Positions 2,132 through 13,403 of a stretch of DNA of 32,000 nucleotides are shown in pieces. Source of the stretch: Candidatus Harpocratesius repetitus (GTDB lineage Archaea; Asgardarchaeota; Lokiarchaeia; Sigyniarchaeales; Promethearchaeaceae); assembly GCA_021498095.1 (NCBI GenBank), contig JAIZWK010000001.1, positions 1,560,001-1,592,000 on the forward strand, given 5' to 3'. Position numbers and translations under genes: made by a program. How positions within the stretch are numbered: position 1 is the first letter of the stretch; each line of letters begins with the position of its first letter. The notes beneath the pieces are model-generated. The model was given only the letters and a program-made list of their open reading frames with translations, had not been told where the DNA came from and did no database searches.

Positions 2132-3508
2132 ATGATTATTTCTTCAAAATTCTGGAACATTTATATTGTTTTGTATGTTACGTTCCATATCATGTCAAGA
2201 TCGTGTGAAATTGATACACTTCCGGTTGATGGATTATGTATTCCACTAAATATTTCAATTGGGACTAAAATCATTACTGATTATGTGAAAATATGTTGTC
2301 CAAATGAAAAAGACGGTGAAGAAGTTCATATATTGACTAAGAATGGCCAAGATACAAGCGTTAAAGGTTCTCCACAGCAATTTGTTTGCACTACATGCGG
2401 AAGATGTTTCTATCCGCATACTAGTCGCTTCTTCAAAGAATTGAAAACCGATATCAAGACGATCATCTCTCAATCACTCAAAAGAGGACGATTAAATGTA
2501 AAATCTTTATCGAGAAGATTGCAATTAAAAAGATCGACCACTTCGAGGCTTCTATTACAAGTTATTAAATTAGTCTCAAATTCGATTAAACACAAGAAAT
2601 ATTTTAAGACTAAGCGGAGACGGAGTAATTGCTTGTTTATCGATGAAACATTTCTCAAAATCGGAAGGAAAACATGGTATTTGATTGTTGTAGTGAGTGG
2701 AAATAACAAAATTATGGCAGTCGAGTTAGTTAAAAAGCGAACTAAAGCAATAATATTCGAAATTGTCAAGAATTGTGCAGATCGTTTATTATATGGCCTA
2801 CAACTCTTGATATCTGATGGATTTCAAGTATATGTAGGGGTAGCAAGGAAATTAGGCAAAAATCTCACACATGTAAGACATATTCACAAACCTCCGTACA
2901 GGAGAATTATCGTAGAAATCTATTCGTATGATGAGTTTGACGTTTCTAAAACAATCTTTAAAACAACGAATGAAATTACTACAACATTTGGATGGTTTAT
3001 AGGACATGTAAAAACAACCAAAGAGAGCTTAGGCAATCGAAAGCGTGGTCGAAAAAAGGGGAGTAAAAACCGTTCCAAACATATTATTGCGGCAGAAAAG
3101 AAAGAAAAGGCAGAAAACAGGAAACCTCGTGGTCGACCTCCAGCAAAATCTGCTAAAAAGGGATGGAAAGTGCATGTTTTCAATCATGACAGAAAAAAAG
3201 GTTGGATAACTGCTCTTGGTGGAAGTTCTACTGTGGTGGGCACCGCAATGAAGATAATCCTCAAGCAATTTCGAAATATGCACATAACCTCCAACCTTAT
3301 CGAAAAAGAGTTCAGTGCGCTTAAAAAACTTATTGATTTTCGAGGACGACGATCAATGGAAATATGGAACGAATTATTGATTTCCTATTTTATTATTCGT
3401 GATGAACCAAAAATATTGGATCAGGTTCTTGATCAAGTGAATATTTCTTTCCAAACCGTATCTAAATCAATTTCTTGTTTATTAACAGGAGGGGTAGCCG
3501 TTATGTGA
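2132..3508 (+). CDS. DDE transposase (IS1/IS6-related) with N-terminal Zn-ribbon and HTH; start may be ATG 2192
   Basis: CCPN...KNG...QQFVCTTCGRCF Zn-ribbon; FIDETF (D, 2642), LISDG (D, 2816), TSNLIEKEFSALK (E, 3302); lies between TIRs. Confidence 0.88.
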   Translation: MIISSKFWNIYIVLYVTFHIMSRSCEIDTLPVDGLCIPLNISIGTKIITDYVKICCPNEKDGEEVHILTKNGQDTSVKGSPQQFVCTTCGRCFYPHTSRFFKELKTDIKTIISQSLKRGRLNVKSLSRRLQLKRSTTSRLLLQVIKLVSNSIKHKKYFKTKRRRSNCLFIDETFLKIGRKTWYLIVVVSGNNKIMAVELVKKRTKAIIFEIVKNCADRLLYGLQLLISDGFQVYVGVARKLGKNLTHVRHIHKPPYRRIIVEIYSYDEFDVSKTIFKTTNEITTTFGWFIGHVKTTKESLGNRKRGRKKGSKNRSKHIIAAEKKEKAENRKPRGRPPAKSAKKGWKVHVFNHDRKKGWITALGGSSTVVGTAMKIILKQFRNMHITSNLIEKEFSALKKLIDFRGRRSMEIWNELLISYFIIRDEPKILDQVLDQVNISFQTVSKSISCLLTGGVAVM

Positions 3509-3637: not shown

Positions 3638-4837
3638 ATGCATTTTATAAGATATGGATTGAATTTTTTTTCACAACATAAAGTTCGTTTTTGGGCTTGT
3701 CTTCTGGGATTTTCCTTCGCTTTAGGTTCAGTTTTTACAATCCAAGGCTATGTGTCTATATTTTCGCAAATTGTTGAAAATCATGCCTTATTGAATAACA
3801 ATAATTATTTAGTGGTTGAAAAGGGGAGTAATTTAATTCAATTACTTCCTTTTGATTCAAATATTAACGAAAACTATACTAAAGAGCTTGAAACTATACC
3901 TCATATTCTGGCTTGTATTCCTCTTATATTTAAAGAATTTAGCAATACATCTGAATATTCTTGGTGGTCTGAAGCAATTATTGGGATTCCATTTGATGAT
4001 ATTGATCTTATAATTGGGAAAAATGTTCAAAACTATCTTGAATCTGGTAAATGGCCTTTCATCTCCAATAAACAAATACTTATTGGAGCAGAATTCTCAA
4101 AAAAAGGGTTAAAAGCAGGTGATCAAGTTCTTTTGCATAATCATTCCTTGAATATAGGGGGGTTACTTCAAAGTATAAATCCCTTATTTGATCGATGCAT
4201 TTTTGGAGATTTCTCTATGATTCAATCAACATTCGAGATGGAAGGATTTTGTTCAGGCATTTTCGTTTTGACAGATTCAATTCAACAAGCTTCCACCACC
4301 AATAGTTCAATATTTTCTATTGAGGAAAAAATTGAAGAATCATATCCTAACTTAAAAGTAATAAATCAAGTTTCTTATAAAACTTCAATTCAAAGCGTTT
4401 TTGGTAGTTTTAATGCACTAACGCAAGTGATTAGTATATTTCCTTTAATTATTAGTTTAATTTTCTTATTTGTATTAATTCAATTAACATTTAAGGAACG
4501 CCAATCTGAAATGTGCATTTTACGGGCAATTGGAGCTTCAAATTTTCGTCTTTTTTCTGCAATTTCCTTTGAATTGATGATTATGGGGGTTATTAGTTTT
4601 TTTATTGCAATAATAGTTGGTTTTAGTTATTTTGGTGTTATGTTTCTATTTTTCCCTGAAATTAGAGTGGGATATTCTATTAGACAGTATATTATTCAAA
4701 TGAAAGAACAAATTCCATTCAATGTTTATGTCAATACTGGAATTTTTGCTTTTTTCTTATTGGGAATTATTTGTTTACAAATTCTTTGGAATATAGTTCA
4801 TATGAATATAATTAATGGAATAAAACAAATGGAGTAA
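3638..4837 (+). CDS. ABC transporter permease, MacB/FtsX family
   Basis: N-terminal TM helix, large extracytoplasmic domain, C-terminal TM helices with KERQSEMCILRAIGAS (ERxxEIGxLRAxGA motif). Confidence 0.85.
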   Translation: MHFIRYGLNFFSQHKVRFWACLLGFSFALGSVFTIQGYVSIFSQIVENHALLNNNNYLVVEKGSNLIQLLPFDSNINENYTKELETIPHILACIPLIFKEFSNTSEYSWWSEAIIGIPFDDIDLIIGKNVQNYLESGKWPFISNKQILIGAEFSKKGLKAGDQVLLHNHSLNIGGLLQSINPLFDRCIFGDFSMIQSTFEMEGFCSGIFVLTDSIQQASTTNSSIFSIEEKIEESYPNLKVINQVSYKTSIQSVFGSFNALTQVISIFPLIISLIFLFVLIQLTFKERQSEMCILRAIGASNFRLFSAISFELMIMGVISFFIAIIVGFSYFGVMFLFFPEIRVGYSIRQYIIQMKEQIPFNVYVNTGIFAFFLLGIICLQILWNIVHMNIINGIKQME

Positions 4838-4930
4838 ATATTAAGAAATTTATAATCTGATAAATGATAAAGGAATAAAAAAAAATATTAACACACAAAC
4901 AAAAATCGACTAAAATTCAAGTGAATAATT

Positions 4931-6118
4931 ATGTATCTCTTTTCTTATATTCTCCAAAATTTTCAAATAAAAAAAAAGAGAACTAAATTAAGAGTAGGTG
5001 CTATAACTTTTGCTTTAATTAGTTCTTTAGTAATGGGGTTTTTGGTAAATATTTATTTGATTGCTGAGAAAGGTTTTTTTTCCCCATTTGAGAATTATGA
5101 CCAAATTGTGGAATCTGGAACAAGTTTCACTCAATTTTTACCAGTTGCTTCTTTATATAATCAAGAATTTCAATCTAAGACAGAAAATATATTAAATCAT
5201 AGTGTTTATCCTGCTTTAATTATTTCAAATACTCCATTCATTGTATCTTTTCACTTTTCATATGTTATTGGTATGCCGTTTGATAATATTGATACTTTTT
5301 GGCAGAAAAATTTATTGGCACAAGGAGAATGGCCCCAATCACCATACGAAGTTGTTGTAGGATGGAATTTAAGAGAAAATTCCACTATTTGTTTACGAGG
5401 TAACAATTTATCTGTTGTTGGTGTCTTTGAATTTTCATATTCTTTTTTAGATTTAATGATTCTCACAGATTTAGAAATGTTACAGAACATTACAAATCAT
5501 GAATCGTTAATTTCGGTAATGTATGTCCCTCGATCGCAAGATCCACGAATTAATGAACAAAATCTGGTATTAAATAAATCAAAAATAGATTCTATCGAGG
5601 CTCTTTCAACTCAATTAGATTACTTAACTCCAACTGATATTCAATGTATTCAATCAAAATTTCAAGGATTTATCGATAGTATTTCTCAGATTTTCATCCT
5701 TCTTAGTACTGGAACAGCTCTTTTCTTTGTTATGGTTGTAAATATTATTCAATTTCAGAATCAGAGGAAAGATTTTCTTTTATTCTCACAAATTGGGATG
5801 AAAACAAGCAAAATTTATTTACTATATTGGTTTGAAAATGGAATAATCCTTGCTTTAGGACTAATATTAGGTGTTCCTATTTCGATTGGAGTATTTACAG
5901 GATTATATTGTTATATTCGATTACAATCTGATTTATCCTTTACAATGTGGCAAAATCTTCAGATTGCCTTTTGGATTTTAAAACGAGCTTTTCCTTTTCA
6001 ATATATGATGAACTGCATTGCTTGGATCAGTTGTTTTTATGTAATAATGCTGGTGTCCACAACTATTTATGACTTCCTTATTAGAAAATCATTTGTTTTG
6101 AATAAGAAAATAAATTAA
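4931..6118 (+). CDS. ABC transporter permease, MacB/FtsX family (divergent)
   Basis: Same topology; GEWPQSPYEVVVG and QRKDFLLFSQIGMK are degenerate MacB/FtsX motifs. Confidence 0.78.
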   Translation: MYLFSYILQNFQIKKKRTKLRVGAITFALISSLVMGFLVNIYLIAEKGFFSPFENYDQIVESGTSFTQFLPVASLYNQEFQSKTENILNHSVYPALIISNTPFIVSFHFSYVIGMPFDNIDTFWQKNLLAQGEWPQSPYEVVVGWNLRENSTICLRGNNLSVVGVFEFSYSFLDLMILTDLEMLQNITNHESLISVMYVPRSQDPRINEQNLVLNKSKIDSIEALSTQLDYLTPTDIQCIQSKFQGFIDSISQIFILLSTGTALFFVMVVNIIQFQNQRKDFLLFSQIGMKTSKIYLLYWFENGIILALGLILGVPISIGVFTGLYCYIRLQSDLSFTMWQNLQIAFWILKRAFPFQYMMNCIAWISCFYVIMLVSTTIYDFLIRKSFVLNKKIN

Positions 6119-6188: not shown

Positions 6189-6378
6189 ATTGTTATTTTT
6201 TTCTTAAAATCATTATAGTATGGGATAAGAAAATCATTTATTGTAACTTATCATCGAAAAATTTTTTACAAATGCACAATTTTTATTCTTGTTCATGAAC
6301 AGTGGAATTGCCTCTGTCACTTTCTTATTTTCTAAAAATTTCTAATCCCCAAATAATACAATTAAAAGGTGTTCAACT

Positions 6379-9300
6379 ATCTCATACAATCTAGAAACCC
6401 TTAAAGTTATTGATAAAATTCGCTTCGGGCTTTTATCTCCCGAAGAAATTCGTAAAATGTCTGTTGGTCGGATTATTACGGCTGATACATACGATGAAGA
6501 TGGTCTTCCTATTAAATCTGGTTTAATGGATTCTAAGCTAGGTACAATTGAACCAGGACAAAAATGTGCTACATGTGGTAATCGAGTTGGAGCATGTCCC
6601 GGTCATTTTGGTCATATTGAGCTTGCTAGACCCGTCGTCCATGTTGGTCATGCCAAATTACTTTTAAAAATACTGCGCGGTATATGTCATGAATGTGGAC
6701 GAGTATTATTGACTGAGGAGCAAATTGAAGAATATTACGACCGTCAAGAAAAATATATTGAAATTTTCGATAAACCAGATGAAACTTTAATTGGAGAAAT
6801 ATTCAAATCTGCAAGAAAATCGAAAGAATGTCCCCATTGTGGTGCAGAAAAACATAAAATAACAATTGAAAAGCCTACAACCTTCTATCGTGGAGGTGAA
6901 CGTCTGACTCCAGTTGATATCAGAGAATTACTTGAAAAAATACCAGAGAGTGATTATGGTCTTTTTGGAATTAATCCAGAAACTGCACGACCAGAGTGGA
7001 TAATTTTAACTGTATTACCAATACCTCCTGTTTGCGTTCGTCCATCTATCACATTGGATAGTGGAATTAGATCTGAAGATGATTTAACACACAAATTAGT
7101 TGATGTTATCCGTATTAATCAACGACTGCGAGAAAACATCGATGCAGGTGCACCTCAATTAATTGTGGAAGATTTATGGGAACTTTTACAATATCACGTT
7201 ACAACTTATTTCAATAATGAAGTTAGTGGAATTCCTCCAGCACGTCACCGTTCTGGTCGTGCTTTACGTACCTTAACTCAGCGTTTGAAAGGAAAAGAAG
7301 GGCGATTTAGATCAAATCTTTCTGGAAAGCGGGTGGACTTTTCTGCTCGTACCGTAATATCTCCCAATCCTCACATTTCTCTTAATCAAGTCGGTGTTCC
7401 ATATAAAATTGCTAAAATTTTAACCGTTCCATCCTATGTTACTGAATTCAATATTGAAGAAATGAAACAGACAGTTTTGAATGGGCCTCATACACATCCC
7501 GGTGCAAATTACATTATCAGAGAAGATGGTCGCCGCATTGATTTACGGTTTGTCAAAAATCGCGAGATAGTGGCTTCTACAATAAAACCAGGTTTTATTA
7601 TTGAACGTCATTTACGGGATGGTGATTTAGTTTTATTCAATCGTCAACCTTCACTCCATCGAATGTCAATAATGGCACATGAAGTAAAGGTAATGTCTGG
7701 AAAAACTTTCCGGTTATCTTTAGTTGTTTGTCCTCCCTATAACGCAGATTTTGACGGCGATGAGATGAATTTACACGTTCCACAAAGCGAAGAAGCACGA
7801 ACTGAAGCCGAATATCTGTTAAAAGTCCAAGAACATATAGTTTCTCCGCGATATGGAGCTCCTATTATTGGTGCAATTCAAGATTTCATTTCTATTGGTT
7901 ATATTTTCACAAGGAATGAACGAGCACCCGGTGTACCTAATGTATATAGTAGGAAAGATACATTTATGCTGCTTTACTGGGGAAATGTCTTTCGTAGAAA
8001 TCCATCATTTTCTATCAAAGATCTTACTCCTGTAAATCCTGAAGATCCAGAAAGTGAGTGGAAATATACAGGAAAGGAGATATTTAGTTGTATTTTGCCC
8101 CACGATTTAAATATGGAGTTGAAATCAAAATTTTATAAAGATGAAGAAGGTGCACGAATTGGAAGCGATGGATATGATGTAATACATAATGGAAAAATGA
8201 TTTCTGGAGTAATTGATAAAAATTTGATGGGTGATGGTAAGTCTTCCAGTATCTTACACCGTATTATTCGAGATTACGGACCAACTCGTGGGCGACAATT
8301 CTTAGATGATTTTTGTGGAATGATGGTTTGGGCGATAACAATGACCGGATTAACCATGGGAATTGATGAAGTAGATATTGGTCGAGCCCGCAAGGATGTC
8401 CATAATAAAATTTATGAAGCTTATGACAGAGCAGCTGAATTGATTAAAGCATATTATGAAGAAGATGAAGAAATATTACCTTGTGCGCCTGGTCGTACCC
8501 TTTACGAGACTTTAGAATTGAATTTAATGAGTCTATTAAATAAAGTTAGGGGTGAAGCTGGAAATATAGCATCCCACTTTTTAGGCGATACTGCTCATTC
8601 AGTTATTATGACCAAATCAGGTGCAAGAGGAAATCCATTAAACTTAGCTCAAATGGCTGCTTGCGTAGGTCAGCAATCTGTCCGACAAAACCGAATTCAT
8701 CGAGGTTATATAGATCGAACCCTACCACATTTTAAAGTTAAGGATTTATCTCCAGCAGCGCGTGGATTTGTATTGAATTCATATCGTGATGGATTAACTC
8801 CTACTGAATTCTTCTTCCATGCTATGGGTGGGCGTGAAGGTTTAGTAGATACTGCTGTACGAACAAGTTCATCTGGATATATGCAACGAAGATTAGTGAA
8901 TGCTTTACAAGATATGGTGGTTGAAAATGATTTATCTGTTCGTACCTCTGAGAATATGGTTGTTCAGTTCAAATACGGTGATGACGGAATTGATCCTGGT
9001 CGATCAGATGCTGGTGATATCTTAAATTTTGATCAAGCGATATTGAAAACACGATCATTTAAACAGTTATTAGAAAAAGAAGAAAAAATAGCTGAAAAAT
9101 TGGATAAAGCTTCACATCCTGAATTTCCTGTATCATATATTAAGAATATTACAAGTCATGGCTTTTCAGTTATTGAACAGATTGGAGAATCTCCAACAAT
9201 CAATAATGAACAAATTTCGCAAAAAACTTCATCTACTAAGATTGGTGCTAAAACTACAGAAACTAGTTCAGAAAAATCCGCTAAAAAGCTTAAATTATCA

Positions 9301-9957
9301 ACCATTTCTGATTTTGAGGAAAGTGATCCTAGCATTTTAGAGGATGAAGATTGGTATAGATGGTATAAATTAGAAACGAAAAAGAATGCCATTTATCATG
9401 GAAATACAACAAAATTGTTTACAAATTGGAAAACGGAAAAAATAAATGCGAAAAGATCCATTTCAACAGAAGAAAAAGAAGAATTTCAAAATGAAGAGAT
9501 CGCTAAAGAAGTTGCTGAAGAAGAAATAAAATCTTCCAGAACTCTTGCTGATTTTTCTTCTCTTGATCCTAGTACATTATCAGATGAAGATTTATACCAA
9601 TGGTATAAATTAGATACAGGAAAAAATGCAATTTATCGAGGAAACCTAACTAAAATATTCCAAAAATGGAAATCTAATAAAATAGCTGAATTTGAATCTT
9701 CTAGTGAGACTTCTGAGATTGAAACAGAAGATACTCAGACTACGATAATTGAAGATGAAAATGAAGTTATAGAAGAAGAACCTGAAGTAGAAGAGCAAGA
9801 AATTAAATCTGATTTAGCTTCTCGAAGCTTTTCATCTTTATCAATTGAAGAACGTTACCAATTATATAATCAAGAAACGGGTAAAAAGGCAATTGTTAGA
9901 GGACGAGCCACCAATATATACAAAAATTGGGAGTCCAAGAAAATGGAGGAAGAATAA
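6379..9957 (+). CDS. rpoA1: DNA-directed RNA polymerase subunit A' (Rpo1N) with ~300-aa C-terminal extension
   Basis: NADFDGDEMN active-site motif, clamp Zn sites CATC...CPGHFGH and CHEC...CPHC, DTAVRTSSSGYMQRRL bridge helix. Conserved N-terminal residues (KVIDKIRFGLLSPEEIRKM) lie upstream of ATG 6457; proposed start is ATC 6379, 7 nt after AGGTG. Confidence 0.97.
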   Translation: MSYNLETLKVIDKIRFGLLSPEEIRKMSVGRIITADTYDEDGLPIKSGLMDSKLGTIEPGQKCATCGNRVGACPGHFGHIELARPVVHVGHAKLLLKILRGICHECGRVLLTEEQIEEYYDRQEKYIEIFDKPDETLIGEIFKSARKSKECPHCGAEKHKITIEKPTTFYRGGERLTPVDIRELLEKIPESDYGLFGINPETARPEWIILTVLPIPPVCVRPSITLDSGIRSEDDLTHKLVDVIRINQRLRENIDAGAPQLIVEDLWELLQYHVTTYFNNEVSGIPPARHRSGRALRTLTQRLKGKEGRFRSNLSGKRVDFSARTVISPNPHISLNQVGVPYKIAKILTVPSYVTEFNIEEMKQTVLNGPHTHPGANYIIREDGRRIDLRFVKNREIVASTIKPGFIIERHLRDGDLVLFNRQPSLHRMSIMAHEVKVMSGKTFRLSLVVCPPYNADFDGDEMNLHVPQSEEARTEAEYLLKVQEHIVSPRYGAPIIGAIQDFISIGYIFTRNERAPGVPNVYSRKDTFMLLYWGNVFRRNPSFSIKDLTPVNPEDPESEWKYTGKEIFSCILPHDLNMELKSKFYKDEEGARIGSDGYDVIHNGKMISGVIDKNLMGDGKSSSILHRIIRDYGPTRGRQFLDDFCGMMVWAITMTGLTMGIDEVDIGRARKDVHNKIYEAYDRAAELIKAYYEEDEEILPCAPGRTLYETLELNLMSLLNKVRGEAGNIASHFLGDTAHSVIMTKSGARGNPLNLAQMAACVGQQSVRQNRIHRGYIDRTLPHFKVKDLSPAARGFVLNSYRDGLTPTEFFFHAMGGREGLVDTAVRTSSSGYMQRRLVNALQDMVVENDLSVRTSENMVVQFKYGDDGIDPGRSDAGDILNFDQAILKTRSFKQLLEKEEKIAEKLDKASHPEFPVSYIKNITSHGFSVIEQIGESPTINNEQISQKTSSTKIGAKTTETSSEKSAKKLKLSTISDFEESDPSILEDEDWYRWYKLETKKNAIYHGNTTKLFTNWKTEKINAKRSISTEEKEEFQNEEIAKEVAEEEIKSSRTLADFSSLDPSTLSDEDLYQWYKLDTGKNAIYRGNLTKIFQKWKSNKIAEFESSSETSEIETEDTQTTIIEDENEVIEEEPEVEEQEIKSDLASRSFSSLSIEERYQLYNQETGKKAIVRGRATNIYKNWESKKMEEE
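9301..9942 (+). repeat. Three ~40-48-aa repeats in the Rpo1N C-terminal extension
   Basis: 9301-9444, 9541-9684 (exactly 240 nt after the first) and ~9826-9942; core WYKLETKKNAIYHGNTTKLFTNWK / WYKLDTGKNAIYRGNLTKIFQKWK / LYNQETGKKAIVRGRATNIYKNWE. Confidence 0.9.
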
Positions 9958-9963
9958 TAATAG

Positions 9964-11253
<1,290 letters not shown>

Positions 11254-11336: not shown

Positions 11337-11433
11337 TGCTTTTTCTACCGCTTTCGCTCTGTTAAATATTACAAACATAAATTTTTTTTAATATGGTTGA
11401 TTATCGAAATTATCATATTGAGTGGATGAAATT

Positions 11434-11802
11434 ATGTCATATCGACGAGGTCAACAAAAATTAAAGCGCCGAAAACGATCGAGTGCAAAGTCACTATGGG
11501 ATGAAGGTAAAGAAATCAACGTAGCCGTAAAAACTGGGAAAGTTCTTTTAGGCGAACGTTCAGTTACTCGAGAATTATCTATGGGTGACTTGAAAATGAT
11601 TGTGTTAGCGCGAAATGCTCCTGCAAAAGTTGTGAATCAAATTAAAATACTAAATAATTGTTTAGAATCTCCAATTCCTGTATATGTTTCAAAGAATTCC
11701 AGTTGGGAACTGGGAGCTATATGTGCTCGCCCACATTGGGTTTCTGTAGTTGGAGTAATTAATCCGGGCGATTCTTCAATTATGAAAGCTGTTGAAAAAT
11801 AA
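11434..11802 (+). CDS. rpl30e: Ribosomal protein eL30
   Basis: AVKTGKVLLG, LKMIVLARNAP, SSWELGAICARPHWVSVVGVINPGDS (L7Ae/L30e family); position after rpoA2. In-frame GTG 11422 is an alternative start. Confidence 0.92.
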   Translation: MSYRRGQQKLKRRKRSSAKSLWDEGKEINVAVKTGKVLLGERSVTRELSMGDLKMIVLARNAPAKVVNQIKILNNCLESPIPVYVSKNSSWELGAICARPHWVSVVGVINPGDSSIMKAVEK

Positions 11803-12100
11803 GCTTCTTCACTTTCAACTTTGATTTCTTTTTTTTAAGTTCTGTAATATAATTAACATTTAATTAATAGGCATTTTTATGACCGTTAAATTATGAAAAA
11901 TATTGAGTTTAGGTGAAATCCTCTTTTAATATATGTTTTCTCTTAAAATTCATTTTTATCAGAGCGCTCCTCGTTTTTAAACTTTATTGCTTGATAATCC
12001 TCTTAGTTTTTTTCTTCAAAACCCAAAATTTTATTTTAAATGGAAGGTTGATTTCCCTATCGCATATTACGATTATCGATTTATTGGAGTTATTTATACT

Positions 12101-12544
12101 ATGGGAAAAAGTAAAAGTCCACGCGGACAATTCGCTGCTCGTGCTTTGAAAAAAAAGCGACAACGATTCCGCTGGAGTGATAAAAATTATAAACGACGCA
12201 CACTCAGAATTAAAGAAAAAACCGATCCACTTGAAGCTGCCCCCATGGCAGAAGGAATTGTCCTTGAAAAAGTTGGTGTCGAATCGAAACAACCAAATTC
12301 CGCTATCCGAAAATGCGTCCGCGTTCAACTACGTAAAAACGGAAAACAAATCAGTGCCTTCTTACCAGGTGACTCTGCTCTTACTTTCGTGGAAGAACAC
12401 GATGCTGTGACTGTAGTTGGAATCGGAGGTGCAATGCATGGTGCTATTGGGGATCTTCCTGGTGTTCGTTGGAAAGTTATCAAAGTTAATGGCGTTAGTT
12501 TAGATGCTATGATTCAAGGGAAAAAGGAACGGGCAGTCCGTTAA
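12101..12544 (+). CDS. rps12: Ribosomal protein uS12
   Basis: [14 protein letters not shown] start after GGAGT; [15 protein letters not shown] and [18 protein letters not shown] motifs. Confidence 0.97.
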
Positions 12545-12563
12545 GACTTAATAGGTGAAAAAA

Positions 12564-13403
12564 ATGGTTGGAAAACGAAAAAGTAAAGCGGAAAAAGCTG
12601 AAGAAGAAGCAAAAGCTGAAGAAAGTGCAAAAGAAGATACCGCTACGATAGAATCTGAAGAAAAAGAATTGTCCGATGCCGCTCTTGAAGGATTAGAAGC
12701 TGACGAATCAGCAGAATTAGAAGATGAAATTGATGAAACCGATGATCTCGAAGAAGATGAAGAAGATACAACCAAGAAGAAGCGAAGTAGGCGTGCTATC
12801 GCTGATATCAAACTTTTCAATAGATGGTCTTATGAAGGCGTTGAAGTACATGATATCAGTTTGCAAAATTATATTAATTTAAATCCTGTTATCATTCCTC
12901 ATTCTGGTGGAAAGCATCAACATAAACGATTTTGGAAGACTGAGCATATTTCGATTATCGAACGTTTCATCAATAAGATAATGACACCTGGTTTGGTTAA
13001 AAAACGCATTAAAGGACGAGGTGCTTCCCATAATATGGGTAAGAAATCAAAAATCATCCAAATTGTCTATAATGCATTTGCAATTGTTGAGCAAAAAACC
13101 GGTGAAAATCCCATTCAAGTTTTTATCAATGCTTTAGAAAATACTGCACCTCGTGAAGAAACTACCCGAATTTCATTAGGTGGAATCAGTTATCAACAGG
13201 CAGTTGATATTGCACCTCAACGTCGTGTAGATTTGGCTCTAAAATTGTTAGTTCAAGCCACAGTTGGTAAAGCATATAATAATATTAAAACTATTGATGA
13301 ATTATTAGCTAATGAGTTGATTTTAGCCAGTCGAAATGATACAAATTCCGCTGCAGTTAAACGGAAAGATGAGATGGAACGGGTTGCAATTTCCGCCCGC
13401 TAA
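12564..13403 (+). CDS. rps7: Ribosomal protein uS7 with ~80-aa acidic N-terminal extension
   Basis: KLFNRW, ENTAPREETTRI, AVDIAPQRRVDLAL, KRKDEMERVAISAR; AGGTG + 6 nt + ATG 12564. Confidence 0.96.
   Translation: MVGKRKSKAEKAEEEAKAEESAKEDTATIESEEKELSDAALEGLEADESAELEDEIDETDDLEEDEEDTTKKKRSRRAIADIKLFNRWSYEGVEVHDISLQNYINLNPVIIPHSGGKHQHKRFWKTEHISIIERFINKIMTPGLVKKRIKGRGASHNMGKKSKIIQIVYNAFAIVEQKTGENPIQVFINALENTAPREETTRISLGGISYQQAVDIAPQRRVDLALKLLVQATVGKAYNNIKTIDELLANELILASRNDTNSAAVKRKDEMERVAISAR

Follow-up and report, generated by a model that had tools for sequence, protein, structure and literature searches.

The RNA polymerase subunit A' (Rpo1N) of Candidatus Harpocratesius repetitus does not end at the usual A'/A'' split but goes on for another 301 residues as a tail that is translated and under selection (residues 866-1166, nt 9052-9954 of the window, by which we mean the whole 32,000-nucleotide stretch analyzed). 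According to structure prediction, the tail is organized as beads on a string, with three modules of 45-55 residues held apart by disordered linkers that differ in charge. The module represents an undescribed domain family. Two sister families of archaea use it promiscuously in the cytoplasm, and it is neither a polymerase invention nor a polymerase-only device.

The open reading frame from 6457 to 9957 on the forward strand translates into 1166 residues with no internal stop. The corresponding database protein has 1192 residues and starts 26 codons 5' of the first ATG; because conserved N-terminal residues are also encoded 5' of that ATG, the upstream ATC is likely the true start. Pfam identified Rpb1 domains 1-5 (E 5e-88 to 8e-25), and their order, the end at the A'/A'' split and the adjoining A'' gene identify the protein as an archaeal Rpo1N/A'. 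Rpo1N chains in the PDB match the last core segment (E 4e-38). Homology to the solved Thermococcales and Sulfolobales chains ends at residue 865 (...FDQAILKT), 10-12 residues short of the end of those chains, and in a sister family belonging to the same order Rpo1N likewise ends at this point; on both grounds, we placed the start of the tail at residue 866. These boundaries bear out the original prediction, made from the sequence of the window, that archaeal Rpo1N normally ends here and that about 300 further residues follow, its junction at 9060 being off by no more than three codons.

Table 1. Positions and properties of the A' gene, the elements of its tail and the A'' gene within the window
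Feature	Residues (A')	Positions (nt)	Strand	Properties
rpoA'/Rpo1N gene		6379-9957	+	First ATG 6457; likely true start ATC 6379
Post-core element	866-912	9052-9192	+	Predicted helices flanking an HPEFPV motif, conserved within the family; pLDDT 60-76
Linker 1	913-946	9193-9294	+	S/T/K-rich, net charge +4, predicted disordered; pLDDT <50; dN/dS ~1.3
Module unit 1	947-997	9295-9447	+	Core aa 967-991 (nt 9355-9429); pLDDT 89-93; dN/dS 0.30
Linker 2	998-1026	9448-9534	+	Acidic, net charge -5; pLDDT 43-57
Module unit 2	1027-1077	9535-9687	+	Core aa 1047-1071 (nt 9595-9669); pLDDT 86-91; dN/dS 0.38
Linker 3	1078-1119	9688-9813	+	Strongly acidic, net charge -18; pLDDT 34-48
Module unit 3	1120-1166	9814-9954	+	Core aa 1134-1158 (nt 9856-9930); pLDDT 81-93; dN/dS ~0.08
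rpoA''/Rpo1C gene		9964-11253	+	Start 6 nt past the A' stop codon; Rpb1 domain 5, profile positions 58-265

Related genomes have conserved the tail, and AlphaFold2 modeled it as three confident beads (pLDDT 87-93) on low-confidence linkers. The post-core element lies outside the coverage of solved Rpo1N chains; its HPEFP motif is invariant in nine family tails, and its dN/dS against a second genome of the genus (G002) is ~0.13. Units 1 and 2 are offset by exactly 240 nt, as had been claimed, with 73% identity across 121 nt (9324-9444 vs 9564-9684), and unit 3 sits 87 codons after unit 2. Unit 1 scored 66-99 bits in the HMM search of the genome. Unit 3 shares 60-72% identity with the terminal A' copies of other genera and, judged from these comparisons of sequence, is orthologous to the lone terminal copy found there and is under strong purifying selection. 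As a whole, the tail in Ca. Harpocratesius carries a net charge of -19 (pI 4.9), and each unit forms a charge dipole in which the hairpin and helix 2 together reach +4 to +6.

The module follows the consensus L..E.L...[YF].xETGKxAIWRGKxTKx[FY]xxWK. AlphaFold2, whose use on the repeat had been proposed with the original prediction, confidently modeled each unit as a helix, a tight beta-hairpin of the 2-residue type and a second helix. In terms of sequence, the family signature comprises a helix ending in [YF]-x-x-E-T-G-K, a hairpin A-I-[WY]-R-G-K-x-T and a helix K-x-[FY]-x-x-W-K within a core of ~35 residues, and we refer to the family as the ETGK-WRGK-W module. An independent profile built from 33 copies, all on non-polymerase proteins of other genomes, scored units 1, 2 and 3 at 37, 54 and 53 bits, respectively, compared with a top score of 11.7 bits in 1000 shuffles of the tail, indicating that the three predicted repeats are not due to chance and that all three units belong to the family. 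The near-invariant positions T, A, G, T and W form helix caps, the turn and the core, and are structural. At its exposed positions, the module conserves basic or aromatic residues (K 91%, W/Y 94%, R 59%, K 72%), and the exposed K, W/Y and K positions are kept across unrelated carriers; given so small a fold, conservation of the module could nevertheless be purely structural. A predicted complex of two copies (homodimer, alignment A2) scored 0.00, which is evidence neither for nor against pairing.

The repeat had been described as unrecognised, and searches of Pfam, NCBIfam and PHROG returned no family for it except a partial, sub-threshold match to PF01693. With a single-module model, the best Foldseek match in the PDB had an E value of 4.9, and a wide fold search with VIA-align gave a best Z of 3.4 (2.5 in a second VIA search). 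The Lsr2 DNA-binding domain ranked third in the wide search (Z 3.2, 46/48 residues, rmsd 3.1 A), within the noise band of the aligner; the RNase H1 hybrid-binding domain (HBD), SAP/LEM domains and the villin headpiece were absent from the Foldseek and VIA fold lists. In the ESM Atlas, a feature search with unit 3 gave no usable match, and the fold search returned chiefly other Promethearchaeota carriers. No SAP, HeH, LEM or Lsr2-type family was listed in Pfam scans at E up to 1. A superficial likeness of LSDED...WK..KKEK to the villin headpiece (PF02209; 36-position VHP profile) yielded no match in the genome or tail at E up to 10, and weak, inconsistent Pfam matches to DUF6651, Soyouz_module and AID were taken as noise. 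Literature searches on Asgard/Lokiarchaeia Rpo1N, C-terminal extensions and Harpocratesius found no account of the tail.

PF01693, the RNase H1 HBD, was the only signal from a known family, at 23.8-28.1 bits summed over the repeats, and 1qhk and 3bsu were among only three PDB sequence matches to the module. The HBD (also Cauli_VI) and the module share the motif A-[IV]-x-[RK]-G-[RK]-x-T-x-[IV]-[YF]-x-x-W with the same spacing. However, the match spans only about profile positions 4-23 of 44 (4-19 to 4-24), single copies score 13.3-16.4 bits, below the gathering score of 21, and a sequence clears its 21-bit cut-off only when three partial matches in one tail are added up. No copy in 41 related genomes exceeded the cut-off, and no single domain matched the whole 44 positions above 21 bits. 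Whereas the HBD has a beta-beta-alpha-beta-alpha topology with a lysine-pair third strand, the AlphaFold2 model predicts alpha, hairpin, alpha: the module has an N-terminal helix and lacks the third strand and last helix that bear the HBD lysine pair. Stand-alone module proteins end 4-5 residues past the conserved Trp, leaving no room for HBD strand 3 and helix B.

The search of related genomes suggested with the original prediction revealed the module on many non-polymerase proteins. Detection was confined to two sister families of a single order, against 26 other families sampled, with 576 representative clusters at E up to 1e-3 among 1.84 billion proteins, and the module was present in 60/60 sampled genomes of these families. 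In most of their members, A' carries one terminal copy after a lysine-rich linker, and three A' copies are a trait of this genus. The proposal of a lineage-specific flexible tether with repeated modules thus holds for its linkers and modeled folded beads and for its restriction to the lineage, but the module is not confined to the polymerase and the triple arrangement is specific to the genus, one copy being the usual state of A'. In the set of representative carriers, 71 have the module at the C terminus, 28 at the N terminus and 23 internally or at both ends, and 28 are stand-alone copies; the module is nearly always terminal, behind a flexible linker and on the cytoplasmic side. Beta-helix surface proteins, for example, have a TM helix followed by a K/P-rich cytoplasmic linker and then the module. 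Other carriers include eL13, aIF2-gamma, HisKA-receiver proteins, Ras/Arf/Rag GTPases, LRR proteins, a BBS-like propeller, MoxR and ABC ATPases, SWIM and zinc-ribbon proteins, and the cytoplasmic tails of surface receptors. Signalling, trafficking-type and membrane proteins, not nucleic-acid enzymes, make up most of the carriers, and the 25 most frequent Pfam families in 77 scanned carriers contained no helicase, nuclease, polymerase-accessory or HTH family.

No protein other than A' carries the module in this genome, in 2/2 other same-genus genomes searched or in one other closed genome of the family, which rules out a homotypic network as the general mechanism. In the sister family, Rpo1N is without the module even though it occurs on other proteins of the same genomes. 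Copy number and linker composition vary freely among close relatives. A histone-H1-like K/T/P/A linker is present in most A' tails of the two families, and the linker charge ranges from acidic in this genome to poly-lysine in a same-genus genome and most other genera; this lack of conservation argues against simple electrostatic nucleic-acid binding by the whole tail. Stand-alone module proteins have 44-46 residues, those of 44 residues being very basic, and no conserved partner gene was found beside stand-alone copies at five loci. One genome encodes a stand-alone 46-residue copy in the interval from rpoA' to rpoA'', a link between the free module and the polymerase.

With regard to function, we tentatively regard the module as a tethered docking (adaptor) unit on the polymerase tail, a reading to which we give somewhat less than an even chance, and as its partner we slightly prefer a protein or cell structure to nucleic acid. 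With the tail, the polymerase would reach and hold a cytoplasmic partner, more avidly for having three copies; receptor tails, small GTPases, HisKA-receiver proteins, ATPases, eL13 and aIF2-gamma would engage this partner as well. In this way something would be recruited to the polymerase during transcription, or the polymerase would be brought to a particular place, and the tail would work like the alpha-CTD or the Pol II CTD while being unrelated to either. We infer a recruitment tail, as did the original prediction. On the side of docking, we counted a real and constrained tail, the bead-linker models, the terminal placement, the types of carrier, the variation in linker charge and the stand-alone copy in the operon; on the other side stood the genomes in which A' is the sole carrier, the basic or aromatic nature of the conserved exposed residues, and conservation that may be structural. 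The polymerase, eL13 and aIF2-gamma all act on nucleic acid, which fits nucleic-acid binding equally well.

In our judgment, nucleic-acid binding by the module itself is somewhat less likely than docking. Here the basic hairpin and helix 2 (K, W/Y, R-G-K/R, K, W-K) would contact DNA, nascent RNA or the RNA:DNA hybrid; thanks to the tail, the polymerase would stay bound to its template or transcript, regulators among the other carriers would be brought to the nucleoid or RNA, and in a sub-case the module would be a degenerate relative of the RNase H1 HBD that senses R-loops. The charge dipole of each unit is consistent with such contacts, as are the histone-H1-like linkers, the very basic stand-alone copies and the presence of the polymerase, eL13, aIF2-gamma, SWIM and zinc-ribbon proteins among the carriers, yet the tail in this genome is strongly acidic overall and the carriers instead include receptor tails, GTPases, LRR proteins and ABC ATPases. 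The sub-case draws on PF01693 with its two PDB matches, but the match is partial, single copies fall below the cut-off and the predicted topology is unlike that of the HBD. The Lsr2 DNA-binding domain has a helix-loop-helix shape, and its rank in the fold search favours nucleic acid, but its Z score lies within aligner noise.

It is improbable that the module instead docks on the surface of RNA polymerase, serving on A' as a cis-tethered subunit-like piece or an auto-competitor and elsewhere delivering regulators, ribosome parts (eL13, aIF2-gamma) or mobile-element proteins. The genomes in which A' is the sole carrier and the copy within the rpoA'-rpoA'' operon are in line with this, and the eL13 and aIF2-gamma copies would give transcription-translation coupling; against it, three copies on linkers of ~30-40 residues fit poorly with a single docking site, and the sister-family Rpo1N lacks a module that other proteins there bear. 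Also improbable, and a little more so in our estimate, is a tolerated lineage-specific decoration with no specific ligand (an entropic bristle or solubility tag) arising from a small, stable, easily duplicated fold. Free variation in copy number and linkers and the structural nature of the near-invariant positions suit such a decoration, but the constraint on unit 3, the occurrence in every sampled genome of the two families and the exposed residues conserved across unrelated carriers speak against it. Finally, a sequencing or assembly error might mask a stop or frameshift near 9060, so that the tail is not made, a possibility raised with the original prediction. Independent assemblies of the genus, as well as dozens of other genomes, show this open frame with the same modules, and the codon-level pattern is that of coding sequence; this cross-genome conservation effectively refutes an artefact, whose probability we consider negligible.

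If the module is a docking unit, it may be a shared docking tag of Lokiarchaeial cell organisation or signalling, gathering RNA polymerase, the ribosome through eL13, aIF2-gamma, receptor tails, GTPases, LRR proteins and HisKA-receiver proteins in one cytoskeletal, membrane or scaffold hub, with the A' tail as an independently evolved CTD-like recruitment or localisation platform. We consider this extension doubtful; were it true, such a platform would have evolved in the closest prokaryotic relatives of eukaryotes, at the Rpb1 foot position as placed by alignment. Polymerase-tethered accessory domains link transcription to regulators in bacteria (the alpha-CTD) and in eukaryotes (the CTD and foot), and we know of no such tethered appendage on archaeal polymerases, nor did the literature searches turn one up for Asgard A'. 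On sequence evidence, an order-restricted A' appendage is now defined in the Asgard lineage to which the cultured Lokiarchaeia belong, and its domain family, absent from the Pfam, NCBIfam and PHROGs libraries that we searched, is likewise attached to ribosomal, translation-initiation, small-GTPase, receptor and two-component proteins. The identity of the ligand would reveal either a physical connection of transcription and translation with signalling or cell architecture, or a minimal fold for nucleic-acid binding that is new. Because the module is small (35-55 residues), confidently predicted and naturally available as stand-alone proteins, it is directly testable.

Among known systems, the small homotypic adaptor domains of prokaryotic signalling and conflict systems (effector-associated or Death-like) resemble the module in being tiny, terminal, promiscuous, multi-copy or stand-alone, and common to receptors, NTPases and output proteins; they differ in that A' is the sole carrier in several genomes, so that pairing cannot generally be homotypic, and no family match links them. 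The C-terminal domain of Lsr2 and the SAP/HeH/LEM domains, which are helix-loop-helix DNA-binding mini-domains, share with the module a size of ~40 residues with two helices and a loop of ~10 residues, and the A' copies of the family bear R-G-R/K in the inter-helix loop. Domains of these types are often terminal on diverse proteins, including membrane proteins. The loop of the module, however, is modeled as a tight beta-hairpin, and the structural match to Lsr2 is at noise level. The bacterial alpha-CTD is a small folded helical domain on a flexible linker with which the polymerase reaches DNA or activators. The A' tail resembles it in this tethered architecture, but the alpha-CTD is one domain of ~85 residues on alpha, while here 1-3 copies of a 45-55-residue module stand at the A'/A'' split, and the module showed no sequence or fold match to it in Pfam, Foldseek against the PDB or VIA-align. 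The CTD of Pol II Rpb1 is likewise a repetitive, flexible tail on the largest-subunit lineage and a potential multivalent platform. By alignment, the A' tail lies where the Rpb1 foot domain begins, and, as the original prediction held, it is not homologous to the CTD: the CTD consists of unfolded tandem YSPTSPS heptads that end the A''-equivalent part, whereas the tail described here is built of folded modules and linkers, repeats with a period of 80-87 residues and ends A'.

The uninterrupted forward-strand ORF at 6457..9957 encodes 1166 residues. Because it contains Rpb1 domains 1-5 in order (Pfam) and the next ORF carries the A'' half of domain 5, the pair is identified by sequence as rpoA', encoding Rpo1N (A'), followed by rpoA''. 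Conserved N-terminal residues of A' were found 5' of the first ATG, and no in-frame ATG, GTG or TTG lies upstream of that codon (window 6343-6459). The database copy of this protein (P0002, 1192 aa) starts 26 codons upstream, at an ATC (6379) with AGGTG 7 nt ahead of it, and this non-canonical ATC is likely the true start. Neither rpoH nor rpoB precedes rpoA' within the window, and the usual archaeal rpoH-B-A'-A'' block is broken. Downstream of rpoA'' (window 11422-13403) the order is L30e, S12 and S7, and no NusA ORF separates the first two. As listed, the ORFs for S12 and S7 are long (185 and 282 aa), with Pfam domains beginning only at residues 76 and 104, which probably reflects over-called starts or N-terminal extensions.

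When A' was compared with every PDB sequence, its homology to solved Rpo1N chains stopped at residue 865 (...FDQAILKT), 10-12 residues short of the ends of those chains, and in a sister family of the order (genomes G016 and G020) Rpo1N ends a few residues beyond the equivalent position. Because core homology ends there and the sister-family proteins terminate nearby, the remaining 301 residues are an add-on, and the tail start near 9060 given in the original prediction was accurate. The three repeats that it described in this tail were also recovered, with copies 1 and 2 exactly 240 nt apart, as claimed, and 73% identical over 121 nt. An independent profile built from 33 module copies, all on non-polymerase proteins of other genomes, scored units 1, 2 and 3 at 37, 54 and 53 bits, compared with a top score of 11.7 bits for the shuffled tail (n=1000).

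Two other assemblies of the genus each contain the same open frame with three units, and the A' of relatives reaches 1148 aa with three units or 1011 aa with one. The frame is thus open past 9060 both here and in independent assemblies, and such cross-genome conservation excludes an artefact origin. Against the same-genus genome G002, where dS is saturated and only the ranking is meaningful, dN/dS was 0.017 for the polymerase core, 0.08 for unit 3, 0.13 for a post-core HPEFPV element, 0.30 for unit 1, 0.38 for unit 2 and 0.45-1.3 for the linkers. These comparisons indicate that the tail is made and under selection.

An AlphaFold2 model of a single unit (59-sequence alignment, mean pLDDT 80.7) predicted two helices joined by a two-residue beta-hairpin at the R-G turn, the second helix beginning at the conserved Thr. 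A second model, of the whole tail from nine family sequences, contained three confident beads (pLDDT 87-93) preceded and separated by stretches with pLDDT <50, so that the predicted architecture is one of helix-hairpin-helix units on low-confidence linkers. The module profile (203 copies) reads L..E.L...[YF](99%)-E-x-E-T(88%)-G(81%)-K(91%)-x-A(90%)-I-W/Y(94%)-R(59%)-G(93%)-K-x-T(97%)-K(72%)-x-[FY](100%)-x-x-W(90%)-K, in which the aromatics would form a mini-core and the T, G and T positions would serve as helix caps and turn. Charge within each unit is arranged as a dipole, with -2 to -3 on the first helix and +4 to +6 on the hairpin and second helix, and the whole tail of this genome has a net charge of -19 (pI 4.9). 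The 47-residue post-core element, which has predicted helices, is conserved in all nine of this family's tails that were examined, its HPEFP motif being invariant, and does not occur in the other carrier family.

Features of the window and coordinate-mapped module carriers in related genomes (G, genome; L, locus)
Feature	Location	Strand	Remarks
DDE transposase-like ORF	2132-3508		upstream of rpoA'
FtsX-like permease ORF	3638-4837		upstream of rpoA'
FtsX-like permease ORF	4931-6118		upstream of rpoA'
A' tail	9052-9954	+	301 residues
Post-core element	9052-9192	+	47 residues
Unit 1	core aa 967-991	+	bead aa 945-1005
Unit 2	core aa 1047-1071	+	bead aa 1025-1085
Unit 3	core aa 1134-1158	+	bead aa 1120-1166
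rpoA'' ORF	9964..11253		
Ribosomal protein eL13	L013:1483-2433	-	G004; K/P/A/E-rich tail, two C-terminal module copies
aIF2-gamma (GTP_EFTU + eIF2_C)	L034:2522-4114	+	G004; one N-terminal module copy
Stand-alone 46-aa module protein	L063:3438-3578	+	G045; between rpoA' and rpoA''

The description of the repeat as unrecognised was borne out. Pfam returned only PF01693, the RNase H1 N-terminal hybrid-binding domain (HBD), always at profile positions 4 to about 23 of 44; it reached 23.8-28.1 bits when three partial matches in one tail were summed, and 13-16 bits on single copies against a cut-off of 21. Among PDB sequences, the module profile in turn matched this short motif in the yeast (E 0.38) and human (E 1.1) HBDs. 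Although the shared A-[IV]-x-R-G-[RK]-x-T-x-[IV]-[YF]-x-x-W is striking, we did not file the module under PF01693, because it lacks the second half of the HBD, has an added N-terminal helix and differs in predicted topology. Searches of NCBIfam and PHROGs gave no match, and Foldseek and two VIA-align fold searches with the module model returned nothing above noise; the Lsr2 DNA-binding domain (VIA-align Z 3.2, within noise) is a lead only. A villin-headpiece identity was rejected after a profile test (PF02209, whole genome, no match). Public annotation calls the carriers only "response regulator", "RNA polymerase subunit A'" or "hypothetical", and no published description of the tail or module was found in the literature on Asgard/Lokiarchaeia Rpo1N, C-terminal extensions or Harpocratesius.

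Profile searches placed the module in 58 of 61 genomes of the order and, in a phylum sample of 251 genomes, in every genome of two families (4/4 and 56/56; 60/60 together) and in 0/190 genomes of 26 other families. An exhaustive profile search of 1.84 billion representatives yielded 576 clusters (E up to 1e-3), with as many as 8 matched stretches in a single protein; all named sources were Asgard MAGs, and ESM-Atlas fold neighbours were mostly Promethearchaeota proteins. In the two carrier families, A' usually consists of the core, a lysine-rich K/T/P/A linker of 50-100 residues and one terminal module; in a third family of the order the module occurs on other proteins and A' has no tail. This genus is characterised by three modules on acidic linkers, but even within it the linkers of G001 (L005) consist of poly-lysine KKKTP-type repeats where this genome is glutamate-rich (window 9193-9813; linker 3, net -18).

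The original prediction held for the tail and its repeats. The module is not a polymerase-only device, being also present on many non-polymerase proteins. In this genome A' is the only carrier, even at E up to 10. Elsewhere, HisKA-receiver proteins are the commonest class, often as tandem pairs, alongside ABC and MoxR-type ATPases, Ras/Arf/Rag-like GTPases, LRR proteins, a BBS-like propeller, SWIM, TPR and zinc-ribbon proteins, a multi-pass membrane protein and very basic stand-alone proteins of 44-48 aa. In beta-helix/NosD surface proteins the module follows a signal sequence, ectodomain, single TM helix and K/P-rich linker, and therefore lies on the cytoplasmic tail. Of 150 representatives, 71 have the module at the C-terminus and 28 at the N-terminus; another 28 are stand-alone copies, and in the remaining 23 the module is internal or occupies both ends. 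The rpoA' beside the stand-alone copy in G045 is itself module-terminated, and its rpoA'' occupies two ORFs (L063:3610-3894 and 3987-4844), which suggests a split or frameshift. At L062 (G015:C34:1-9000) a 6-kb stretch encodes a TFB (TFIIB) paralogue and two zinc-ribbon proteins together with module-bearing proteins, two of the HisKA-receiver type and one of the LRR type. G049, with 20-22 module copies in total, has an internal copy in each of three ORFs of 1300-1416 aa (L047:3-4250 and two paralogues on other contigs); the L047 ORF, the one scanned, had no Pfam domain, and the three may be mobile-element members.

The A' tail is a flexible tether with one to three small folded units common to many cytoplasmic proteins of the clade. 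We tentatively infer that the module serves in docking, as an adaptor that on the A' tether would engage a protein or cell structure. This role is favoured because the carriers' partner domains are overwhelmingly of signalling, trafficking and membrane types, not nucleic-acid enzymes, because the linkers switch freely between an acidic and a poly-lysine character, and because the tail is strongly acidic in this genome. Direct binding of nucleic acid, the main alternative, is in our view somewhat less likely, although the conserved module surface is basic and aromatic, most A' tails have lysine-rich linkers, the polymerase, eL13 and aIF2-gamma are among the carriers, and the HBD-like motif points the same way. 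Binding to the polymerase itself, judged improbable, would account for the genomes in which A' is the sole carrier and for the free copy embedded in the operon; decoration without any ligand also seems improbable, as the selection on unit 3 counts against it.

If the tail is a docking tether, its closest counterpart in action would be the bacterial alpha-CTD and a looser one the Pol II CTD, with kinship to neither, in keeping with the proposal of a functional analogue, not a homologue. The point at which the tail leaves the enzyme aligns near yeast Rpb1 residue 880-900, where the foot domain starts on the Pol II domain map. Accessory modules tethered to a polymerase are a known kind of device; new are the domain family, the position at the A'/A'' split and the spread across transcription, translation and signalling proteins.
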